From IMG/VR virus record IMGVR_UViG_2563366946_000008: a stretch of 17,964 nucleotides of DNA, one strand, 5' to 3'. A model generated the notes under the pieces. The model made no database searches. It was not told where the DNA came from and saw only the letters and a program-made list of their open reading frames with translations. This stretch comes from a virus (taxonomy: Duplodnaviria > Heunggongvirae > Uroviricota > Caudoviricetes). Below, piece after piece: positions 1 through 15,023 of the stretch (position 1 is its first letter; each line of letters opens with the position of its first letter). The position numbers and the translations under genes are program-made.

Positions 1-1143
1 CTATGCTGTTTTGATATCTACGATAATCCAGTCTTTACCACGATCATCATTGTATCGGTCGGTCATTTTTCTGGATTTATGGCCTAACAACTTTTGCGTA
101 TCCAGACCCTGTTCCCGATATAACCGTTCTGACAGAGATCGCTGCTCATGAAATGTGGGCGCAGTTCCTTGCTCCCATTTTATGCCACATTTTTCCCGGG
201 CCTTTTTAAAAGCCGTTGTCAGAGTATTCGCAGAAACCTGGTCTCCTCTGTTTGCTTGAGAGGTAGTGTGACGGTAATGGACCAGATATTTACTAACAAC
301 AGCATCCCTGCACTGAGATATAACTTCACGAAGGGTAATATTCAGAGCATCGCATTTCAGGTTAAGCGGAATAGCAAGTTTTGAACCGGTTTTTTCCTGA
401 GTAATGTGCAACATGTCGTCCCATATATCAGAGAATTTCAAATTGCAGATATCGCCTAAACGTTGTCCAGTAACAAGAGCAAGTAGCATGCCGCATTTTA
501 AATAGGGCTGCCGTCTGCTTACGCTGTCAAATATTGCCTGCCATTCGGGCAGTGACAATCTTTGGCGGTTTACTCGATTTCGCGGTTGTTTTGTTGCCTG
601 CGCTGGGTTAAATCCTGGCGGAACATGTCCTGCGTGTTGTGCTTCTTTGAAGACGTCGATCAACACCATTCTCACGACTTGCGCCATCCTGTTATGACCT
701 TCAGCCTTTACAGCATCAATTATTTCGGCAATATCAAGTGCGGTAATATCCTTGAGGTGTTGCATTCCACAATGCTCACGGAAAAGACGAATGGGTTTGC
801 CTTTTTGCCGATAGGAGTTGGGTCTTAGTTCATTATGTTGCAGCCTGTCCTCTTGGATAGAAATATATTTATCAAGCCATTCTGTCACCGTAATGTCTGA
901 GCGCCTGCCTTTCATTCTTTCCAGACGCTCATTGACGCTTAATATTTGTCTGGTACGTTGTTCAGCAATAATGGTATTTGCTTCAGTAGCAACTTGTTTT
1001 GCTTCATTCTCATCAGTTCCTAAGCTATGAAAACGACCGGATAGTGGATGTTTGTATTGCCAATATACCTTTCCGGTTCGCTTATCTAATTTGCAATATA
1101 AATTGGGTATAGAGATTTTGTGAGATCGGGGTCTAGCAGCCAT
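1..1143 (-). CDS. int: Phage tyrosine integrase (site-specific recombinase), 380 aa
   Basis: Full-length ORF; C-terminal catalytic signature visible in translation (R in ...TGQRLGD..., H-x-x-R in ...FHEQRSL..., H and Y in ...LLGHKSRKMTDRYNDD...); overlaps the excisionase-like ORF by 11 nt as in lambdoid int-xis pairs. Stop codon is at window position 1-3, so the att site lies outside the window. Confidence 0.9.
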   Translation of the reverse strand: MAARPRSHKISIPNLYCKLDKRTGKVYWQYKHPLSGRFHSLGTDENEAKQVATEANTIIAEQRTRQILSVNERLERMKGRRSDITVTEWLDKYISIQEDRLQHNELRPNSYRQKGKPIRLFREHCGMQHLKDITALDIAEIIDAVKAEGHNRMAQVVRMVLIDVFKEAQHAGHVPPGFNPAQATKQPRNRVNRQRLSLPEWQAIFDSVSRRQPYLKCGMLLALVTGQRLGDICNLKFSDIWDDMLHITQEKTGSKLAIPLNLKCDALNITLREVISQCRDAVVSKYLVHYRHTTSQANRGDQVSANTLTTAFKKAREKCGIKWEQGTAPTFHEQRSLSERLYREQGLDTQKLLGHKSRKMTDRYNDDRGKDWIIVDIKTA

Positions 1144-1369
1144 CAGCGATTATCCTTTGGAGTTTTGGGTTTGCGTTTATTGGGAGTTGCGGTTCTGCAA
1201 GCGTTCCTACAAAACGGGAATTTCGGTCAATCATCCAGTAGCGACCAACTTTTATAGCGGGTGGGGCCATCATTTTCCCTTGCGCGTATTTTTTCAGAAC
1301 TCGCTCACTTGGTGCTAAGTCCCCAAATTCTTCTTTAGCCCAGTCCTGTAAAGTGATTAGTCGAGACAT
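1133..1369 (-). CDS. xis: Excisionase-like small DNA-binding protein, 78 aa
   Basis: Small ORF immediately upstream of and overlapping int on the same strand; strong RBS (GAGGAGG) 4 nt before the ATG; position and size typical of prophage excisionases. Confidence 0.65.
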   Translation of the reverse strand: MSRLITLQDWAKEEFGDLAPSERVLKKYAQGKMMAPPAIKVGRYWMIDRNSRFVGTLAEPQLPINANPKLQRIIADGC

Positions 1370-1508
1370 TTGTCCTCCTCTTAGCTGCTGAGGGAGTTTG
1401 TGACCGATATATCTGACATGATATTAAGCTCATGGCAGGTACATCTCTTGACTGGTCATAGAGATAAATTTAATGCTGAGAAATGCAGTATTGAATTTAT
1501 CAATTTTT

Positions 1509-1748
1509 CTATTTCCTGCGCATGTCACGTAACTTCTTAATGTGTTCTGCCGTTTCGATCTCTTCTGCTATCCGATCTGCATCAGCTTTATTCACAGGTT
1601 CAAAGTCATGATTAAAGCGGAACATGCTGGCGATACATGTTCTGCCTTTTCGGATGTAGTGAACTTTGTTGTGGGTAGAACGCAGGATTTTGCAGGGAGT
1701 GCCGTGGTGGTCGACGTACCAGGTGTTAGGGTCAATCACTCTGAACAT
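1509..1748 (-). CDS. Hypothetical prophage protein (DUF4222-like), 79 aa
   Basis: ORF in the same transcriptional direction as the early-left operon, overlapping the next gene upstream; family assignment from memory of prophage small proteins, not verified. Confidence 0.5.
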   Translation of the reverse strand: MFRVIDPNTWYVDHHGTPCKILRSTHNKVHYIRKGRTCIASMFRFNHDFEPVNKADADRIAEEIETAEHIKKLRDMRRK

Positions 1749-2061
1749 TCTTGACCTTGTGTTGTGCGGATTGATATTCAGTGCTGATATTCACCTTTAT
1801 AGCGAACACCTTTACCGGTTTATCGCCAAAGTGCGGATGTGTGATTGTCTTCACTTCATATCCGTCATACGGAACATCAATTCTGCGACTGGAATCGTCG
1901 CGCTTCGGATATCCCTTTGTGATAATCAGGCGGTCATATTCCCGGAACATAATTCGCTTATTCCAGTAGTCATTACACAAGCGATACTCTTCCGTTTTCT
2001 CTCCGCGAATCATGGCATCGAAGTATTCACTTTTAACAGCAAGTTGCAGGTTAGCCATCAC
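1732..2061 (-). CDS. Hypothetical protein, possible ASCH/PUA-like fold, 109 aa
   Basis: ORF translationally coupled with its neighbours on both sides (overlapping stop/start); size and composition resemble the small ASCH-domain proteins common in enterobacterial prophages; unverified. Confidence 0.5.
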   Translation of the reverse strand: MMANLQLAVKSEYFDAMIRGEKTEEYRLCNDYWNKRIMFREYDRLIITKGYPKRDDSSRRIDVPYDGYEVKTITHPHFGDKPVKVFAIKVNISTEYQSAQHKVKNVQSD

Positions 2062-2279
2062 TTAATCCCCCTTTGTTTGCGGATAAGCTCCAGATCTTGC
2101 TGGCAACTGGCGCAAGTCCGACAACCCTGAACGGCCAGGCGTCTTCGTTCATCTATCGGATCGCCACACTCACAACAATGAGTGGCAGATACAGCCAGGT
2201 AGTTCAGGCGGCGCATTTTTATTGCTGTGTTGCGCTGTAATTCTTCTATTTCTGATGCTGAATCAATGATGTCTGCCAT
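2058..2279 (-). CDS. TraR/DksA-family C4 zinc-finger protein, 73 aa
   Basis: Translation contains a four-cysteine motif (C-x-C ... C-x2-C: ...HCCECGD...GCRTCASCQ...) in a ~70 aa protein, characteristic of phage TraR/DksA-like regulators. Confidence 0.75.
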   Translation of the reverse strand: MADIIDSASEIEELQRNTAIKMRRLNYLAVSATHCCECGDPIDERRRLAVQGCRTCASCQQDLELIRKQRGIK

Positions 2280-2286
2280 CTTTCAT

Positions 2287-2381
2287 TAATCCCTGAACTG
2301 TTGGTTAATACGCTTGAGGGTGAATGCGAACAATAAAAAAGGAGCCTGTAGCTCCCTGATAATTTTGCTTTTCATGTTCAT
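2287..2381 (-). CDS. Possible small ORF, 31 aa (MNMKSKIIRELQAPFLLFAFTLKRINQQFRD)
   Basis: Not in the supplied ORF track (below its length cutoff); has an AAGGAA Shine-Dalgarno 5 nt upstream of its ATG and lies in the same operon direction. Confidence 0.3.
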
Positions 2382-2472
2382 CGTTCCTTAAAGACGCCGT
2401 TTAACATGCCGATTGCCAGGCTTAAATGAGTCGGTGTGAATCCCTTCAGCGTTACCGTTTCGCGGTGCTTCT

Positions 2473-2655
2473 TCAGTACGCTACGGCAAATGTCATTGAC
2501 GTTTTTGGAAACTGCTGTCTGACTTTTTTGATTTCAGAATTAGCCTGACGGGCAATGCTGCGAAGGGCGTTTTCTTGCTGAGGTGTCACTGAACAAGCCC
2601 CATGTCGGCAAGCATAAGCACACAGAATATGAAGCCCGCTGCCAGAAAAATGCAT
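2473..2655 (-). CDS. Lambda orf61-like small protein, 60 aa
   Basis: Position (third small ORF leftward of exo) and size match the lambda orf60a-orf63-orf61 series; the sequence itself was not recognised with certainty. Confidence 0.45.
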   Translation of the reverse strand: MHFSGSGLHILCAYACRHGACSVTPQQENALRSIARQANSEIKKVRQQFPKTSMTFAVAY

Positions 2656-2665
2656 TCAGTGGTTG

Positions 2666-2857
2666 TCATACCTGGTCTCTCTCATCTGCTTCTGCTTTCG
2701 CCACCATCATTTCCAGCTTTTGTGAAAGGGATGTGGCTAACGTATGAAATTCTTCGTCTGTTTCTGCTGGTATTGGCACAAACCTGACTCCAATTTGAGC
2801 AAGGCTATGTGCCAAATCAATACTCGTTCTTAACTCAACAGGAGATGCTTTGTGCAT
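2666..2857 (-). CDS. Lambda orf63-like small protein, 63 aa
   Basis: Second small ORF leftward of exo, 63 aa, matching lambda gene order and size. Confidence 0.55.
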   Translation of the reverse strand: MHKASPVELRTSIDLAHSLAQIGVRFVPIPAETDEEFHTLATSLSQKLEMMVAKAEADERDQV

Positions 2858-3018
2858 ACCGCCCCCCGTTTATTATTTATCTCCTCAGCCAGCCGCTGGG
2901 CTTTCAGCGGATTTCGGATAACAGAAAGACCGTGAAATACCCAGCCTCGCTTTGTAACGGAGTAGACGAAAGTGATCGCGCCTACCCGGATATTATCGTG
3001 AGGATGGGTCATCGCCAT
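2830..3018 (-). CDS. Lambda orf60a-like small protein, 62 aa
   Basis: Immediately downstream of exo on the same strand and overlapping it, as in lambda. Confidence 0.55.
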
Positions 3019-3689
3019 TGCTCTCCAAATACAAAACCAATTTCAGCCAGTGCTTCGTCCATTTTTTCGATGAACTCCGGCACCATCTCGTCAAAACTCG
3101 CCATGTACTTTTCATCCCGCTCAACCACGACATAATGCAGGCCTTCACGCTTCATTCGTGGGTCATAGTTGGCAAAGTACCAGGCATCTTTTCGTGTCAC
3201 CCACATGCTGTACTGCACCTGGGCCATGTAAGCCGACTTTATGGCCTCGAAACCACCGAGCCGGAACTTCATGAAATCCCGGGAGGTAAACGGGCATTTC
3301 AGCTCAAGGCCATTGCCGTCACTGCATAAACCATCGGGAGAGCAGGCGGTGCGCATACTTTCGTCGCGATAGATGATCGGGGATTCAGTAACATTCACGC
3401 CGGAAGTGAATTCAAACAGGGTTCTGGCGTCGTTCTCGTACTGTTTTCCCCACGCCAGCGCCTTAGCATTAACTTCCGGAGCCACACCGGTGCAAACCTC
3501 AGCCAGCAGGGTGTGGAAGTAGGACATTTTCATGTCAGGCCACTTCTTTCCTGAGCGGGGCTTTGCTATCACGTTGTGAACTTCTGAAGCGGTGATGACG
3601 CCGAGCCGTAATTTGTGCCATGCATCATCCCCCTGTTCGACAGCTCTCACGTCGATCCCGGTACGCTGCAGGATAATGTCCGGTGTCAT
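3009..3689 (-). CDS. exo: Lambda exonuclease (Red alpha), 226 aa
   Basis: Translation ([40 protein letters not shown]...GFVFGEQWR) is near-identical to lambda Exo as I recall it; 226 aa; overlaps bet stop. Confidence 0.95.
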
Positions 3690-4471
3690 GCTGCCACCTT
3701 CTGCTCAGTGGCTTTCTGTTTCAGGAATCCAAGAGCTTTCACTGCTTCGGCCTGTGTCAGTTCTGACGATGCGCGAATGTCGCGGCGAAATATCTGGGAA
3801 CAGAGCGGCAATAAGTCGTCATCCCATGTTTTGTCCAGGGCAATCAGCAGAGTGTTAATCTCCTGCATGGTTTCATCGTTAACCGGAGTGATGTCGCGTT
3901 CCGGCTGACGTTCTGCAGTGTATGCGGTATTTTCGACAATGCGCTCGGCTTCATCCTTGTCATAGATACCAGCAAATCCGAAGGCCAGACGGGCACACTG
4001 AATCATGGCTTTATGCCGTAACATCCGTTTGGGATGCGACTGCCACGGCCCCGTGATTTCTCTGCCTTCGCGGGTTTTGAATGGTTCGCGGCGGCATTCA
4101 TCCATCCACTCGGTAACGCAGATCGGATGATTGCGGTCTTTGCGGTAAATCCGGCATGTACATGATTCATTGTCCTGCTCAAAGTCCATACCATCAAACT
4201 GCTGGTTTTCATTGATGATGCGGGACCAGCCATCAACGCCCACCACCGGAACAATGCCGTTCTGCTTATCAGGGAAGGCGTAAATTTCTTTCGTCCACGG
4301 ATTAAGGCCGTACTGGTTGGCGACGATCAACAATGCGATGAACTGCGCATCGCTGGCATCACCTTTAAATGCCGTCTGGCGAAGAGTGGTGATCAGTTCC
4401 TGTGGGTCGACAGAATCCATGCCGACACGTTCAGCCAGCTTCCCTGCCAGCGTTGCGAGTGCTGTACTCAT
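3686..4471 (-). CDS. bet: Lambda Bet (Red beta) single-strand annealing protein, 261 aa
   Basis: Translation ([100 protein letters not shown]...) matches lambda Bet; 261 aa. Confidence 0.95.
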
Positions 4472-4476
4472 CCGTT

Positions 4477-4773
4477 TTATACCTCTGAATCAATATCAGC
4501 CTGATGGTGAGCAATGGTTTCAACTATGTACCGGATGTGTTCTGCCATGCGCTCCTGAAACTCAACATCGTCATCAAACGCACGGGTAATGGCTTTTTTG
4601 CTGGCCCCGTGGCGTTGTAAATGATCGATGCATAGCGATTCAAACAGGTGCTGGGGCAGGCCTTTTTCCATGTCGTCTGCCAGTTCTGCCTCTTTCTCTT
4701 CACGGGCGATCTGCTGGTAGTGACGCGCCCAGCTCTGAGCCTCAAGACGATCCTGAATGTAATAAGCGTTCAT
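4477..4773 (-). CDS. gam: Lambda Gam (RecBCD inhibitor), 98-aa GamS form
   Basis: Translation [98 protein letters not shown] matches lambda GamS. Confidence 0.92.
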
Positions 4774-4848
4774 GGCTGAACTCCTGAAAATGGCTGTGAA
4801 AATATCGCCCGCGAAATGCCAGGCTGATTAGGAAAACAGGAAAGGGGG

Positions 4849-4992
4849 TTAGTGAATGCTTTTGCTTGATCTCAGTTTCAGTATTAATATCCATTTTTTA
4901 TAAGCGTCGACGGCCTCACGAAACATCTTTTCATCGCCAATAAAAGTGGCGATAGTGAATTTAGTCTGGATAGCCATAATTGTTTGATCCAT
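4849..4992 (-). CDS. kil: Kil (host cell-division inhibitor), 47 aa
   Basis: Internal Met of the 89-aa track ORF gives [47 protein letters not shown], matching lambda Kil; overlaps cIII 3' end by 32 nt as in lambda. Confidence 0.8.
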
Positions 4993-5125
4993 TTTTTGGG
5001 ACTCCTGGCTGATTAAGTATGTCGATAAGGCGTTTCCATCCGTCACGTAATTTACGGGTGATTCGTTCAAGTAAAGATTCGGAAGGGCAGCCAGCAACAG
5101 GCCACCCTGCAATGGCATATTGCAT
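4961..5125 (-). CDS. cIII: cIII (FtsH/HflB inhibitor), 54 aa
   Basis: Not in the ORF track (under 60 aa). Manual translation of the minus strand from the ATG at 5125 gives [54 protein letters not shown], matching lambda CIII. Confidence 0.85.
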   Translation of the reverse strand: MQYAIAGWPVAGCPSESLLERITRKLRDGWKRLIDILNQPGVPKNGSNNYGYPD

Positions 5126-5197
5126 GGTGTGCTCCTTATTTATACATAACGAAAAACGCCTCGAGTGAAGCGTAATTGGTATGCGGTAACGCCGCGC

Positions 5198-5566
5198 TCA
5201 GGCGGCCTTGATAGTCATATCATCTGAATCAAATATTCCTGATGTATCGATATCGGTAATTCTTATTCCTTCACTACCATCCATTGGAGGCCATCCTTCC
5301 TGACCATTTCCATCATTCCAGTCGAACTCACACACAACACCATATGCATTTAAGTCGCTTGAAATTGCTATAAGCAGAGCATGTTGCGCCAGCATGATTA
5401 ATACAGCATTTAATACAGAGCCGTGTTTATTGAGTCGGTATTCAGAGTCTGACCAGAAATTATTAATCTGGTGAAGTTTTTCCTCTGTCATTACGTCATG
5501 GTCAATTTCAATTTCTATTGATGCTTTCCAGTCGTAATCAATGATGTATTTTTTGATGTTTGACAT
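5198..5566 (-). CDS. ea10: Lambda Ea10-like early protein, 122 aa
   Basis: 122-aa ORF in the lambda ea10 position between cIII and ral; sequence consistent with my memory of lambda Ea10. Confidence 0.75.
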   Translation of the reverse strand: MSNIKKYIIDYDWKASIEIEIDHDVMTEEKLHQINNFWSDSEYRLNKHGSVLNAVLIMLAQHALLIAISSDLNAYGVVCEFDWNDGNGQEGWPPMDGSEGIRITDIDTSGIFDSDDMTIKAA

Positions 5567-5582
5567 CTATTCATATCCTCAT

Positions 5583-5612
5583 AGATAAAAAATCGCCCTC
5601 ACACTGGAGGGC
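5583..5612 (-). terminator. Candidate intrinsic terminator in the early-left operon (between ral and ea10)
   Basis: GC stem GCCCTC/GAGGGC with a 6-nt loop at 5595-5612; on the minus-strand transcript it is followed by a U-run (plus-strand A-run 5585-5592). Confidence 0.45.
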
Positions 5613-5748
5613 AAAGAAGATTTCCAATAATCAGAACAAGTCGGCTCCTGTTTAGTTACGAGCGACATTGCTCCGTGTATTCACTCGTTGGAATGAATAC
5701 ACAGTGCAGTGTTTATTCTGTTATTTATGCCAAAAATAAAGGCCACTA

Positions 5749-5949
5749 TCAGGCAGCTTTGTTGTTCTGTTTACCAAGTTCTCTGGCAATCATTGCCGTC
5801 GTTCGTATTGCCCATTTATCGACATATTTCCCATCTTCCATTACAGGAAACATTTCTTCAGGCTTAACCATGCATTCCGATTGCAGCTTGCATCCATTGC
5901 ATCGTTTGAATTGTCCACACCATTGATTTGTATCAATAGTCGTAGTCAT
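5749..5949 (-). CDS. ral: Ral (restriction alleviation protein), 66 aa
   Basis: Translation MTTTIDTNQWCGQFKRCNGCKLQSECMVKPEEMFPVMEDGKYVDKWAIRTTAMIARELGKQNNKAA matches lambda Ral. Confidence 0.85.
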   Translation of the reverse strand: MTTTIDTNQWCGQFKRCNGCKLQSECMVKPEEMFPVMEDGKYVDKWAIRTTAMIARELGKQNNKAA

Positions 5950-6019
5950 ACGGATAGTCCTGGTATTGTTCCATCACATCTTGAGGATGCTCTTCGAACT
6001 CTTCAAATTCTTCTTCCAT
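5933..6019 (-). CDS. Lambda orf28-like acidic micro-protein, 28 aa
   Basis: Manual translation MEEEFEEFEEHPQDVMEQYQDYPYDYDY with an AAGGTGA RBS; its stop overlaps the ral start as in lambda. Confidence 0.55.
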   Translation of the reverse strand: MEEEFEEFEEHPQDVMEQYQDYPYDYDY

Positions 6020-6162
6020 ATATCACCTTAAATAGTGGATTGCGGTAGTAAAGATTGTGCCTGTCTTTTAACCACATCAGGCTCGGTGGTTCTCGTGTAC
6101 CCCTACAACGAGAAATCGGATAAACTCTATTCACCCCTACAGAGAGCAAAAGAGAAACGCCG

Positions 6163-6744
6163 ATGAACAACTCATGGTGGCAGGAACTAATGCATTTTTT
6201 CCTGCAAGGAATGACACTTAAACAGTTGATTCATATGCTAATCATCCTGATCATATTGATTATTGTTATGCCGGTAAGCGTAAAAGAATGGATAAACCTG
6301 CATAATCCAGAAATCCTTCCTCATTACTGGATGTATTACATCCTGTTGTTTTGCGTTAGCTATGTGCTTAACGGCGTTGTTAATTCCGCTTATCACGCTG
6401 TGACTGAAAGAATTGAGGTATTCGCTGCTCAGAAGCGCAAATCTAAAGAAGAAAAATATGTGCAAGATTTGTTTGATTCGTTAACTCTTGGAGAAAGAGC
6501 GTATTTGGCATTCGCTGTAGCCGCTAATAACCAGCTACAAACGGAAAAGGGCGCTCATGAATCAATTTCATTGCTCAAAAAAGGACTCCTCGTTCGAAGG
6601 CCTCCTGCTGTTGGATATCCTGATACCGACCGTTTCGTTATCCCTGAAAGCTATAGACATGAGTGCTACATTAGGTTTGCCAGGAAGGCAGACAGCCTTA
6701 TGGATGAACTTATCGCTCAGGATAAGCATGGCAAAAACAAGTAA
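6163..6744 (+). CDS. sieB: SieB superinfection-exclusion protein, 193 aa, membrane protein
   Basis: Opposite strand to the pL operon, in the lambda sieB position between ral and N; hydrophobic N-terminal segments (LIHMLIILIILIIVMPV, YYILLFCVSYVLNGVV); length matches lambda SieB. Confidence 0.8.
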   Translation: MNNSWWQELMHFFLQGMTLKQLIHMLIILIILIIVMPVSVKEWINLHNPEILPHYWMYYILLFCVSYVLNGVVNSAYHAVTERIEVFAAQKRKSKEEKYVQDLFDSLTLGERAYLAFAVAANNQLQTEKGAHESISLLKKGLLVRRPPAVGYPDTDRFVIPESYRHECYIRFARKADSLMDELIAQDKHGKNK

Positions 6745-6760
6745 TTAGCAAATGAATTTA

Positions 6761-7033
6761 TCATCTCGCCGTCAGTTGTTTTGATTTCCGGTAGCCTGCC
6801 GCGTAAAGAGCTACGTTCGGAAGACAAGTTGAACCTTCATATTTTCTGGTCAACGTTGTCAGAGTTATCACTTCTGCTCTCATTGCTGGTTTGAGCTTGC
6901 ATTGCAAGACCACTCGTGAAGGGGTTGGCCTGTGTAGCTTGTCGGAGCTGATCGCCTCCTGACTTTGCAGATTTGCGCGACGAGCTCTACGGCGAGAAGC
7001 TGCGGTGCCTTTAAATTCTGTTTTTCTGGACAT
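6761..7033 (-). CDS. N: N-like transcription antiterminator with N-terminal arginine-rich motif, 90 aa
   Basis: N-terminus MSRKTEFKGTAASRRRARRANLQ carries an arginine-rich motif resembling the boxB-binding ARMs of phage 21/P22 N proteins; strong GGGAGG RBS 5 nt upstream; located where N sits in lambdoid genomes. Not lambda N itself. Confidence 0.6.
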   Translation of the reverse strand: MSRKTEFKGTAASRRRARRANLQSQEAISSDKLHRPTPSRVVLQCKLKPAMRAEVITLTTLTRKYEGSTCLPNVALYAAGYRKSKQLTAR

Positions 7034-7144
7034 GGATTCCTCCCGAATAAACTTTGGCGATGCAATCTCGAAGCTCCTCCTGAGACGGTTGCTTCGGCAT
7101 TGTGAACCGCCCCGGGTTTCCTGGAGAGTGTTTTATCTGTGAAC

Positions 7145-8035
7145 TCAGGCTGCCAGATCATCGTTTCCGATGGAAGCATAATAAGCTTTTTCTGCTTCTG
7201 CCGGAGGAGTATGGCCCAGCCTTTCCAGCAATCGTCGATTGTTATACCAGTCCACCCACGTGAGTGTGGCCAGTTCCACTTCTGCACGGTTTTTCCAGCT
7301 CTTACGGTGTATTACCTCCGCTTTGTAAAGACCATTGATGCTCTCCGCCATCGCGTTGTCATACGAGTCGCCTGTACTTCCTGTTGATGCCAGTAATCCG
7401 GCTTCCTTAAGCCGCTGTGTGTAGGCCAGCGATACATACTGAGAACCTTTATCACTGTGATGGACCGTGCCGGACGGTCGACGGGCCCATAACGCCTGCT
7501 CCAGTGCATCCAGCACGAATGTCGTTTCCATGGACGATGAGACCCGCCACCCCACGATGTATCCGGCAAACACATCAATGATGAACGCCACATAGACGAA
7601 GCCCCGCCATGTGCTGACGTAAGTAAAATCAGCCACCCACAGCTGGTCAGGTCGTTCTGCCACGAACTGACGGTTTACGCGGTCGCCTGCGGCAACGGCT
7701 TTCCGGCTGATGGTCGTACGGACCTTTTTACCCCGGAGAACACCGGCAAGTCCCATAACCGCCATGAGACGTGCCACAGTGCATCTGGCCACTCTGATAC
7801 CTTCCCGTAACAACTGACGCCAGACTTTACGCACACCGTATACCTTGTGATTTTCATCGTATACGCGCTGTATCTCTTTCTTCAGCCAGTCATCGCGCTG
7901 CGCACGGGCACTGCGTTTATCCGGATGATGTCGCTGTTGCTGACAGTGGTAATACGTTGACGGGGCAATATGCAGTTCGCTGCATAGCGGTCCGACCCCG
8001 TACTGCTCACGCAGCTTATCCAGCAGTGGCATCAT
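7145..8035 (-). CDS. IS3-family transposase OrfB (DDE catalytic part), 296 aa
   Basis: 296-aa ORF overlapping OrfA by 4 nt; size and position typical of IS3-family OrfB integrase-like catalytic domain. Confidence 0.9.
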
Positions 8036-8358
8036 TTTTTCCAGAGGCGGTCGAACTCCGCCTTCGCAAAATAAGCGGAAGCCTGGCGAAGGATATCGTT
8101 ACTGCGGCGCAGTTCACGATTTTCACGTTCCAGCTCTTTCAGACGCTGACGTTCAGCGGTGGTGAGCCCTCCATCACCGCCCCCGGTATCCCGCTCATGC
8201 TGGCGAACCCAGACACGCAGAGTCTCCGGCGTACAGCCAATCTTTGGAGCAATGGAACAAATTGTCGCCCATTGTGAGTCATATTCGCTCTGACTTTCCA
8301 GAACCATACGAATCGCCCTCTGACGGACTTCGGGGGAAAAACGAGTATTTTTAGTCAT
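8032..8358 (-). CDS. IS3-family transposase OrfA (HTH DNA-binding part), 108 aa
   Basis: Translation [30 protein letters not shown]... matches IS629/IS1203 OrfA as I recall it; ends in an A6 run (TGG AAA AAA TGA) overlapping the OrfB start, the classic IS3-family -1 frameshift window. Confidence 0.9.
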
Positions 8359-8412
8359 CCTGTTTACCTCTTTCTCAGGAAGTTTAGTCTCCAGGATTCC
8401 CGGGGCGGTTCA

Positions 8413-8679
8413 CAGCGTGACGTTGATCGCGCAGAAACAGATTTACTTATCAATCTGTCAGCTATTACCCAGCGCGGTCTGGCAAAGATGATTGGCTGTC
8501 ATGAATCGAAGATAAGCAGAACGGACTGGAGATTTATTGCTTCGGTCTTGTGTGCTTTCGGAATGGCATCAGACATCAGTCCGATTAGCAGGGCTTTTAA
8601 GTATGCGCTTGATGGACTCACCAATAAAAAACGCCCGGCGGCAACCGAGCGTTCTGAACAAATCCAGATGGAATTCTGA
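8413..8679 (+). pseudogene. cII: cII transcriptional activator, 5'-truncated by the IS element (about 8-10 N-terminal codons and all upstream signals missing)
   Basis: The reading frame is open from the first base after the IS (8413) and ends ...LTNKKRPAATERSEQIQMEF, identical to the lambda CII C-terminus as I recall it; the upstream part (…ISRTDWRFIASVLCAFG…) is CII-like but divergent. No start codon or RBS at the true N-terminus. Confidence 0.75.
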
Positions 8680-10596: not shown

Positions 10597-10669
10597 CCAT
10601 CTACATCACTGAGCTAATAACAGGCCTGCAGGTAATCGCAGGCCTTTTTATTTGGGGGAGAGGGAAGTC

Positions 10670-11110
10670 ATGAAAAAACTAACCTTTGAAATTCGATCTC
10701 CGGCACATCAGCAAAACGCTATTCACGCAGTACAGCAAATCCTTCCAGACCCAACCAAACCAATCGTAGTAACCATTCAGGAACGCAACCGCAGCTTAGA
10801 CCAAAACAGGAAGCTATGGGCCTGCTTAGGTGACGTCTCTCGTCAGGTTGAATGGCATGGTCGCTGGCTGGATGCAGAAAGCTGGAAGTGTGTGTTTACC
10901 GCAGCATTAAAGCAGCAGGATGTTGTTCCTAACCTTGCCGGGAATGGCTTTGTGGTAATAGGCCAGTCAACCAGCAGGATGCGTGTAAGCGAATTTGCGG
11001 AGCTATTAGAGCTTATACAGGCATTCGGTACAGAGCGTGGCGTTAAGTGGTCAGACGAAGCGCGACTGGCTCTCGAATGGAAAGCGCGATGGGGAGATCG
11101 GGCTGCATGA
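10670..11110 (+). CDS. ninB: NinB (Orf) recombination mediator, 146 aa
   Basis: Translation from the internal Met (MKKLTFEIRSPAHQQNAIHAVQQILPDPTKPIVVTIQERNRSLDQNRKLWACLGDVSRQVEWHGRWLDAESWKCVFTAALKQQDVVPNLAG...) matches lambda NinB; first gene of the nin region after ren. Confidence 0.85.
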   Translation: MKKLTFEIRSPAHQQNAIHAVQQILPDPTKPIVVTIQERNRSLDQNRKLWACLGDVSRQVEWHGRWLDAESWKCVFTAALKQQDVVPNLAGNGFVVIGQSTSRMRVSEFAELLELIQAFGTERGVKWSDEARLALEWKARWGDRAA

Positions 11111-11634
11111 CTATCAAATCAAATACGCCAGCACACGACAAGGACTGCTGGCAAACGCCGCTTTGGCTTTTTGATGCACTGGATATTGAGTTTGGATTCT
11201 GGCTGGATTCGGCAGCGAGCGACAAAAATGCTCTGTGCGCTCACTGGCTAACTGAGGACGACGACGCGCTCAATTCTGAGTGGGTAAGCCACGGTGCAAT
11301 CTGGAATAACCCACCGTACAGCAATATCAGGCCGTGGGTGGAAAAAGCCGCTGAGCAGTGTATACAACAGCGACAGACGGTAGTGATGCTTGTGCCAGAG
11401 GATATGTCTGTCGGATGGTTCAGCAAGGCTCTGGAGAGTGTTGACGAAGTTCGTATTATCACTGATGGACGGATTAATTTTATCGAACCATCGACAGGGC
11501 TGGAGAAGAAGGGAAACAGCAAAGGCTCCATGCTGCTGATTTGGCGACCGTTCATCAGTCCTCGACGGATGTTTACTACCGTATCCAAAGCGGCATTGAT
11601 GGCGATCGGGCAGGGCGTCAGGAGGGCTGCATGA
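11107..11634 (+). CDS. Phage Dam-like DNA N6-adenine methyltransferase (orphan, no cognate endonuclease nearby), 175 aa
   Basis: Contains the amino-methyltransferase catalytic motif NPPY (…[10 protein letters not shown]…); start overlaps ninB stop (ATGA); occupies the ninC/ninD slot of the nin region. Confidence 0.7.
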
Positions 11635-11807
11635 GACGACAGCGACGAAGCATCACCGACATAATCTGCGAAAACTGCAAATACCTTCCAACGAAACGCT
11701 CCAGAAATAAACGCAAGCTAATCCCAAAAGAATCTGACGTAAAAACCTTCAATTACACAGCCCACCTGTGGGATATCCGGTGGCTAAGATATCGTGCGAG
11801 GAAATGA
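11631..11807 (+). CDS. ninE: NinE-like protein, 58 aa
   Basis: Translation [58 protein letters not shown] resembles lambda/DLP12 NinE; ATGA overlap with the upstream gene. Confidence 0.7.
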
Positions 11808-12151: not shown

Positions 12152-12338
12152 CCCATCTCAATCCCTTCAATACCTGAAAGAAAGCATAGAGCGGGCTTCA
12201 ATGTGCACAGAGTGGATTCTATCTAGGTTTAGCGCATACAGAAGATTGCCGGTAAAGGGCATGCCAAGCAAGTCGATGCTGCATATGCAAAAGAATGCGC
12301 GCTGGAAGGTATGGCGAGAACACAGGTTATGTGGCTGA
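12144..12338 (+). CDS. NinF-like small ORF (N-terminus [14 protein letters not shown]…), 64 aa; possibly frameshifted or mosaic
   Basis: Start overlaps the upstream stop; N-terminal residues resemble lambda NinF as I recall it, but the downstream part does not. A different frame (to 12361) carries a C-terminal-looking segment ending …[26 protein letters not shown] whose stop overlaps the rusA GTG start. Confidence 0.3.
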
Positions 12339-12357
12339 AAGAGGGGGTTATTAAGGC

Positions 12358-12720
12358 GTGAATACCTACAGCATCACATTACCCTGGCCTCCGAGCAATA
12401 ATCGCTATTACCGCCATAATCGCGGGCGCACGCACGTCAGCGCAGAGGGGCAGGCATACCGCGATAACGTCGCCCGAATCATTAAAAACGCAATGCTGGA
12501 TATCGGCCTGGCTATGCCTGTGAAAATCCGCATTGAGTGCCACATGCCGGATCGCCGTCGCCGTGACCTGGATAATCTGCAAAAAGCCGCTTTTGACGCA
12601 CTCACTAAAGCAGGTTTCTGGCTGGATGATGCTCAGGTCGTTGATTACCGCGTTGTGAAGATGCCTGTTACCAAAGGTGGGAGGCTGGAACTGACCATCA
12701 CCGAAATGGGGAATGAATGA
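12358..12720 (+). CDS. rusA: RusA Holliday-junction resolvase, 120 aa (GTG start)
   Basis: Translation [108 protein letters not shown]… matches the RusA family (acidic catalytic residues, DDAQ motif). Confidence 0.85.
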
Positions 12721-12857
12721 TGTTTGAGTTTAATATGGCAGAACTTCTTCGCCACCGCTGGGGGCGTCTGCGCTTATATCGTTTCCTCGGTTCTGTTTTG
12801 ACCGATTACCGAATACTGAAGAATTACGCCAAAACCCTGACAGGAACAGGAGTATGA
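12717..12857 (+). CDS. ylcG: YlcG-like small protein, 46 aa
   Basis: Not in the ORF track; manual translation [46 protein letters not shown]; start overlaps rusA stop; same position as ylcG in DLP12-type prophages. Confidence 0.5.
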
Positions 12858-12942
12858 AGTCAGAGATAACAATCAACTAATACTGTTTTGTTGATTTTTG
12901 CTTGTAATTGGCGTTCTGGTCTGATTTTTGTGGAGTAAGTTG

Positions 12943-13514: not shown

Positions 13515-14597
13515 TTAGAACTGATAAACCAGACCTACAGCGACGATGTCGTCGGTATCAATACCAGCTGTTTTGGTAAACTTACTATCGTCAATTAAGT
13601 TGATTTTGTAATCAACAAAAGTGGACATGTTTTTATTAAAGTAGTAAGTAGCACCGACATCGACATACTTGACTAAGTCTCGGTCACCATGAACACCAAG
13701 GTCTTTACCTTTTGACTGAAGGTAAGCAACAGATGGACGCAGACCGAAGTCAAACTGATATTGTGCTACTGCTTCAAAGTTTTGTGCTTTGTTTGCAATA
13801 TGGTTATTACCAAAAACGGTCATATTCTGAGTTTCAGAATATGTGGTAGCCAGATAGATATTGTTCGCATCATATTTCAGGCCTGCAGCCCATACTTCCG
13901 CATTTTTGCCGGAGGCATTGAATTTGCTCTTACCATAGGCGACCTGACCGTCAGTGCGATCTGATTTAGCATAGGTTGCACCCACGCCGAATCCTTCATA
14001 CTCATAAGTAGTGGAGAAACCGAAACCATCACCATTGGCTTCAGTTACGTCAGTGCGGTCATTTTTACCCTGATACTGAGCAGCAAAGTTCAGGCCATCG
14101 ACCAGACCAAAGAAGTCGTTGTTACGATAAGTTGCAACACCAGTAGTGCGACCAGTCATGAACACATCTGTTTGGGTCCAGGTATCACCACCGAATTCTG
14201 GCAGAACGTCAGTCCACGCACCGATGTCGTATGCTACACCGTAGTTACGGCCGTAATCGATTGAGCCGTAATCACCAAATTTCAGGCCTGCAAATGCAAG
14301 ACGGGTTTTGTCTTTGGAAGAACCTTGAGATTCAGCACGGTTGCCTTTGAATTCATATTCCCACTGACCGAAACCAGTCAGTTGATCGTTGATTTGGGTT
14401 TCACCTTTGAAGCCAAGACGGGCATAAGTAGTATCACCATCATCTGCATCATTAGAGGAGAAGTAGTGCTTGGCATTAACTTTCCCGTATAGATCCAGCT
14501 TGTTACTGTCTTTATTATAAATTTCAGCTGCCTGAGCAGACATCGCCATCAGTACTGATGCAGCTACAGCAGAAATTGCCACTGTTAATTTTTTCAT
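13515..14597 (-). CDS. nmpC: Outer-membrane general porin of the OmpC/NmpC/Lc family (lysogenic-conversion moron), 360 aa with signal peptide
   Basis: Signal peptide [23 protein letters not shown] followed by [17 protein letters not shown]…, porin hallmarks (…PEFGGDT…, …[29 protein letters not shown]…, C-terminal …VAVGLVYQF). Start taken at the internal Met, not the track's upstream ATG. Confidence 0.92.
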
Positions 14598-15023
14598 TGT
14601 ACGCCCTTTTTTTGAACTATTATTAAAAAATGATATCACTGCGCGATAAATATTCATCTAATCAATGTGATTATTTCAAGATGTAAGTTTTAGTTTCTCA
14701 TTTAATTTGTGAAGTAGATCTCTATTTTTATCTGAACCTTTTCTATCTAATCCTATTCATGGCTCTTGTCTGAACAAAAATAAATCTATTAGCTAATTTA
14801 TATTAATGGCACTTATTTATAAGTGCTCTATAATTCTTTAGCTTAATTTAAACAAACTAAAAATAACATCGGAAATTATTAACTGGTTATTTGTTGAAGT
14901 TTTCTTATGCATTTGTGGTGGTGTTTTGAACACTCGGTGGCATTCTCACAAATATCATTTAGTAGTTTACGTACGTAAAAAATTGGTTATGCTGTTAAGA
15001 GTGGTTACTTCGTCACACAGCTT

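Follow-up and report, generated by a model that had tools for sequence, protein, structure and literature searches.

A probable GATC-specific orphan Dam gene in the nin region of an apparently defective lambdoid prophage

What does a lone adenine methyltransferase gene do among the nin genes of a lambda-like phage, which sequence does its product modify, and is it still expressed where it now resides? We addressed these questions for an open reading frame in a 17,964-nucleotide stretch of caudoviricete DNA (IMG/VR record IMGVR_UViG_2563366946_000008), hereafter the window. Both the list of open reading frames and a reading of the sequence showed the frame to be intact, with a product of 175 amino acids:

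11107..11634, plus strand: coding sequence of a dam-type phage N6-adenine DNA methyltransferase, apparent orthologue of M.EcoVT2Dam (PF05869, TIGR01712, phrog_111)

The initial annotation had proposed a Dam-like N6-adenine methyltransferase, with an HMM search as the check. This search matched two families far above their curated cut-offs: Pfam PF05869 ('Dam'; 219.1 bits against a cut-off of 28.1, E 3.7e-65, spanning 1-167 of the 169 model positions) and NCBIfam TIGR01712 (an equivalog-level model named 'phage N-6-adenine-methyltransferase'; 265.6 bits against 97.05, E 1.2e-79, positions 1-165 of 165). PHROG 111 ('DNA methyltransferase') also matched, and the top PADLOC models were those of an 'orphan methyltransferase', with weaker matches to type II methyltransferases. 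Profile support for the methyltransferase family is far beyond chance. Full-length profile matches and the (D/N)PPY motif IV place the protein in the phage PF05869/TIGR01712 family but not in that of E. coli Dam, T4 Dam and DpnM (alpha class, PF02086), so that 'Dam-like' holds in the phage sense and fails as membership in the E. coli Dam family. The alpha-class enzymes carry a DNA-recognition domain inserted in the Rossmann fold. The product is, as judged from sequence, the orthologue of M.EcoVT2Dam and a small single-domain SAM-dependent enzyme of the phage 'HP1/T1/VT2 Dam' family. A 115-aa antisense frame (11241-11588) was considered as a gene and set aside, the sense frame having overwhelming profile support. 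Rfam and tRNA scans returned nothing within or beside dam.

The immediate setting of the gene is as follows:

10670..11110, plus strand: ninB (orf recombination mediator; PF05772, E 1.1e-54; phrog_72)
11093..11096, plus strand: GGAG Shine-Dalgarno sequence inside the 3' end of ninB, 10 nt ahead of the dam ATG (read from the sequence)
11631..11807, plus strand: ninE (PF05322, E 1.8e-41)

At each end the frames overlap in an ATGA. The dam ATG (11107-11109) overlaps the ninB stop TGA (11108-11110) at 11107-11110, and the dam stop TGA (11632-11634) overlaps the ninE ATG (11631-11633) at 11631-11634. These overlaps, with the confirmed NinB and NinE profiles, bear out the earlier description of dam as translationally coupled between the two genes. 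One GATC (11096-11099) overlaps the Shine-Dalgarno region. The gene order ren, ninB, dam, ninE, ninX, rusA, Q is collinear with lambda, and dam has the location of a lambdoid delayed-early gene, between tR2 and Q and co-oriented with overlapping nin genes. Homology to lambda DNA (97.3%) runs from cII through O, P, ren and ninB, ends at 11110 with the ninB stop and is back at 11638, within ninE; the lambda interval between these points holds NinC and NinD. Since homology breaks off at the ninB stop and returns in ninE, dam is an alternative cassette swapped precisely at gene boundaries, and the proposal that it replaces lambda ninC/ninD stands. The lambda cassette fills the identical slot of the delayed-early nin operon, also with 4-nt overlapping junctions, but its genes are unrelated to dam (NinC is PAPS-reductase-like, with 290 aa; NinD has 57 aa).

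No restriction endonuclease gene was found next to dam, in agreement with the initial annotation: profiles identified the neighbours as Ren-like, NinB, NinE, NinX and RusA, and PADLOC matched none of them, leaving the methyltransferase alone. Likewise, the annotated near-identical phages show no such nuclease. The locus thus lacks the adjacent cognate nuclease that marks a type II restriction-modification system.

This gene has been described before and is very common; a near-identical form has been cloned and characterised, and standard annotation pipelines name it. It was found in 1566 of the 5426 complete E. coli genomes (~29%), including Nissle 1917 and the type strain, and among the matches listed all carried the PGAP name 'phage N-6-adenine-methyltransferase' and had ninB and ninE as neighbours. 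At the protein level, a search found that 1906 phage records contain relatives, and 244 of these reach at least 95% identity. Over the 1.6 kb of ninB-dam-ninE-ninX the window is 100% identical to the lambdoid E. coli phages ev207, ev017 and PhiR57_1. Elsewhere these relatives vary: ev017 is ~2.5 kb longer between xis and exo (2058-4576, against 2058-2067 in the window), where it carries Ea22/EaA-like genes, a length difference that reflects mosaicism of the non-essential b2/ea region. The window also has, on the opposite strand between Q and the genes for lysis, a 380-aa frame (13515-14657, minus), annotated in near-identical phages as an OmpD/NmpC-type outer-membrane porin and resembling a moron insertion. 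The surrounding layout, rusA-ylcG-Q-porin-S-R-Rz-bor, is similar to that of the K-12 prophage DLP12.

Two short motifs of the predicted protein bear on catalysis:

11203..11220, plus strand: L33-D34-S-A-A-S38, where predicted strand 1 ends (AF2 model, strand at residues 31-36)
11308..11319, plus strand: catalytic motif IV, N68-P-P-Y71 (read from the sequence)

The NPPY motif had been named in the initial annotation and was confirmed at residues 68-71. It is invariant in 36 of 36 aligned homologues, is present in the HP1, T1 and VT2 enzymes, and comes after a predicted strand at residues 64-68 (AF2 model). L33, D34 and A36 are likewise invariant in all 36 homologues, and by analogy with the class I methyltransferase fold we infer that L33-D34-S-A-A-S38 is the equivalent of SAM-binding motif I. 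The AF2 model consists of one Rossmann (class I) methyltransferase domain without a separate target-recognition domain. Its top structural neighbour was PCIF1, an RNA cap adenosine methyltransferase (15-17% identity), with DNA adenine methyltransferases close behind; the similarity to PCIF1 is one of fold only. A sequence search of the PDB gave no relative, the sole matches being at chance level (E 0.3-0.7), and no member of PF05869 is known to have a solved structure. In the enzyme thus modelled, SAM would be seated where strands 1 and 2 have their carboxyl ends, by the LDSAAS motif and an acidic TE-DD loop, and the flipped adenine would be gripped by NPPY after strand 4.

The protein is identical to VT2-Sakai orf32 (M.EcoVT2Dam, NP_050531) at 174 of 175 positions (99.4%). 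The sole difference, Asp51 in the window and Ala51 in VT2-Sakai, lies in a loop and falls in an alignment column that is highly variable among the 36 homologues (Q, A, E, R, S), with Ala occurring 8 times. A passage in PMC6602927, citing Radlinska and Bujnicki 2001, states that M.EcoVT2Dam 'is known to target 5'-GATC-3''. Because of this near-identity and the position of the D51A difference in a variable column, specificity can be deduced here, contrary to the initial view that it cannot be read from the sequence: the window enzyme almost certainly methylates the adenine of GATC. M.EcoVT2Dam resembles the window gene product further in its 175 aa, its position between ninB and ninE, its overlapping start and stop codons and its orphan state, whereas the phage backbones differ (lambda-like O/P replication genes in the window; a DnaB-like P and a diverged ninB in VT2-Sakai). 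Identical copies of M.EcoVT2Dam occur in Phi24B, Stx2 phage II and Min27, and 99% copies in HK97 and CP-933V.

More distant members of the family are HP1 Dam (orf13 of a Haemophilus phage; 38% identical to the window protein and of about the same size) and T1 Dam (gp20 of a coliphage; 33% identical). These founding members of PF05869/TIGR01712 are, like the window enzyme, without a target-recognition domain, and all three share an N-terminal D-W-TP, LD-AA, NPPYS and a GR-F-G-NK region. Both the HP1 and the T1 enzyme are known from older literature to be specific for GATC. T1 Dam differs from the window protein by an N-terminal extension of ~45 aa and a 14-aa insertion ahead of the GR-F motif. 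The genomic settings differ as well, HP1 Dam lying in a P2-like early operon and T1 being a lytic phage. VT-2 and HP1 are among the phages with Dam-like genes in PMC7556043. E. coli Dam, T4 Dam and DpnM catalyse the same reaction, presumably at the same target, G-m6A-TC, and have in common with the window enzyme the class I methyltransferase fold and the (D/N)PPY catalytic motif. So small an enzyme may read GATC by an undescribed mode, for example as a dimer or through the conserved GR-F...G-N-KG hairpin (121-140) together with the N-terminal D-W-TP motif, a possibility that we consider doubtful.

Expression of dam depends on what lies upstream of ninB:

about 10622..10655, plus strand: tR2-like intrinsic terminator in the ren-ninB gap (8-bp stem with 6 GC pairs, then TTTTATTTGG)

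This hairpin, which with its T-run covers 10622-10645, matches the lambda ren-ninB gap in position, and from established lambda biology we take it to be the equivalent of tR2. In PhiR63_2, the closest phage relative, the gap is interrupted by an IS200-family insertion (12214-12918) lying at the terminator's 3' edge; the insertion is absent from the window (~10652). A promoter scan of the region returned 6 sites, against 8.1 +/- 3.2 in shuffled sequence; none preceded dam, and no promoter of its own was credited to the gene. Because a tR2-like terminator lies upstream and no promoter-like site exceeds chance, dam reads as a pR-driven, N-dependent delayed-early gene. An intact phage would transcribe it from pR once N allows polymerase to pass tR2, and its translation would be coupled to that of ninB. 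In Phi24B, whose dam protein (CM2) is 100% identical to that of VT2-Sakai, expression of dam changed significantly on induction, and of five CMAT genes examined by qPCR only CM18 departed from a lytic-cycle pattern, which the other four, dam among them, followed (PMC3342100).

An early enzyme of this kind would act on rapidly replicating phage DNA. Packaged DNA of lambda, which has no such methyltransferase gene, is ~46% GATC-methylated on a wild-type host, a figure that climbs to 77% when more Dam is supplied (bioRxiv 10.1101/2025.08.29.673000). During lytic replication, therefore, host Dam is in limiting supply. A GATC methyltransferase encoded by the phage and produced early would raise the methylation of phage DNA and close this gap. 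The progeny DNA would thereby withstand restriction enzymes specific for unmethylated GATC as well as MutH, which cuts at unmethylated GATC. The likely benefit, as we infer it, is higher GATC methylation of the phage DNA and hence protection of the progeny. MutH-dependent counter-selection of GATC in enterobacteriophages has been discussed (PMC5014478), added GATC methylation was without effect on mutation rate in lambda (bioRxiv 10.1101/2025.08.29.673000), and the function of phage Dam enzymes is regarded as still poorly understood (PMC7556043). GATC is under-represented in the whole window, with 43 sites against 73.2 +/- 7.6 in dinucleotide-preserving shuffles (Markov observed/expected 0.54), which leaves the phage fewer targets to protect and counts against the benefit. 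Despite the window's own GATC methyltransferase, GATC is its second most depleted 4-bp palindrome after CTAG.

On the pL arm the window carries a gene annotated in PhiR63_2 as a Ral-type restriction-alleviation gene (5749-5949, minus strand) and a SieB superinfection-exclusion gene (6163-6744, plus strand; PF14163). With Ral and the methyltransferase, the element has two separate restriction-related functions. Rfam further detected a lambda cIII thermoregulator RNA element (5080-5138, minus strand; 88.5 bits, gathering score 50).

Compared with PhiR63_2, to which it is otherwise nearly identical, the window differs in one interval, 7103 to ~8412, which coincides with an insertion sequence:

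7103..8412, minus strand: IS629/IS1203-like element of the IS3 family, 1310 bp, in place of the immunity region (inverted repeats, orfA/orfB, ALIL)

Its 27-nt terminal inverted repeats lie at 7101-7127 and 8388-8414, orfA encodes HTH_Tnp_1 and orfB an rve integrase core, and the Rfam scan placed an ALIL frameshift pseudoknot at 7961-8077. Window positions 1-7102 match 1-7102 of PhiR63_2, and those from 8410 onward match 9971 onward. The PhiR63_2 counterpart interval of 2.87 kb contains two unnamed genes together with cI, cro and the opening ~10 codons of cII; by position it also takes in oR/pR and all sequence lying further than 69 nt upstream of N. The element is flanked by TTG on the left and CAG on the right, which is not a target-site duplication and thus indicates an IS-associated deletion. 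What is left of cII (8413-8679, plus strand) is 5'-truncated, begins at about codon 11 and abuts the end of the element; an oop-like antisense terminator lies at 8655-8628 on the minus strand. The prophage, judged from its sequence, is defective, without a repressor and with pR lost; pL is probably lost as well. The drive from pR under cI/Cro control that is typical of lambdoid phages is missing from the window, where the IS element stands in place of this interval. Deletion of the pR interval leaves the intact dam without its native promoter, and the defective prophage probably carries this copy as silent cargo.

In complete E. coli genomes the left junction of the element was absent, as was a 40-mer across it in species-representative genomes. 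At the right junction, all full-length matches in complete E. coli genomes fell short of a perfect match, at 87.7-93.4% identity and in one case split into two pieces. The exact arrangement of IS element and deletion was not found in these complete genomes or in the species-representative ones, with 81% as the best cover of the whole interval. An IS3-cII arrangement in strain 2013C-4830 was considered as the same event and rejected; it is a different insertion, after cII, with cI and cro intact.

Could read-through out of the IS element, or a cryptic promoter, nevertheless keep this copy of dam expressed and so give the host a second, constitutive GATC methyltransferase? Its coding sequence is intact and its DNA 100% identical to the copies in ev207, ev017 and PhiR57_1, and the IS element lies ~2.7 kb upstream. 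However, the transposase genes point leftward, away from dam, the tR2-like terminator stands between the element and the gene, and antitermination would fail with nutR in the deleted interval; the promoter-like sites do not exceed chance either. We consider such expression rather improbable. A different view was that the enzyme alters host gene expression during lysogeny, and this part of the initial annotation was not upheld. The corresponding explanation, that dam is made in lysogens, where it changes host methylation or expression or stabilises lysogeny, can draw on the speculation that Phi24B Dam might supplement host Dam in lysogens (PMC3342100) and on the reported requirement of stable 933W lysogeny for host Dam (cited as Murphy et al. 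2008). The 933W result, however, concerns the host enzyme. In addition, dam lies downstream of pR and the tR2-like terminator, promoter-like sites that might serve it alone do not exceed chance, and the Phi24B data cited above, for a near-identical copy, show a lytic-cycle pattern and a change on induction. Since the target is GATC and ~99.9% of chromosomal GATC is already methylated (PMC6602927), the gene would add nothing in a dam+ host and a role in lysogeny would be redundant there. A role during lysogeny is unlikely, and an epigenetic regulator of that phase seems very improbable.

Another specificity would change the picture more deeply. A non-GATC motif, non-specific adenines, single-stranded DNA or RNA might be considered as targets for an enzyme without a separate target-recognition domain whose top structural neighbour modifies RNA caps, the more so as other E. 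coli prophage and plasmid methyltransferases (M.EcoGI/GII, M.EcoGIX) are non-specific or relaxed. Against this stand the 99.4% identity to an enzyme reported as GATC-specific, with a single change at a variable site, and the fold-level nature of the PCIF1 likeness, with DNA adenine methyltransferases ranking close to it. The non-specific E. coli enzymes are, moreover, tabulated apart from M.EcoVT2Dam in PMC6602927. We regard a relaxed or different specificity as extremely unlikely. M.EcoGIX, a plasmid-borne single-strand-specific methyltransferase, was also tried as a relative and rejected as unrelated to the window gene.

As a whole, the locus is best explained as a GATC-specific Dam gene of the phage family, carried as a delayed-early orphan cassette of the nin region and present here as silent cargo, a reading to which we assign a probability of about 0.88. 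It carries little weight as a discovery, the gene being an ordinary and well-known phage gene. If the mode of GATC recognition is indeed an undescribed one, the enzyme would represent a minimal solution distinct from those of E. coli Dam and T4 Dam. Beyond this, the window illustrates that a deletion associated with an IS element can cut a phage gene off from its promoter while leaving the gene itself intact, which calls for caution when function is deduced from the presence of a gene in a prophage.
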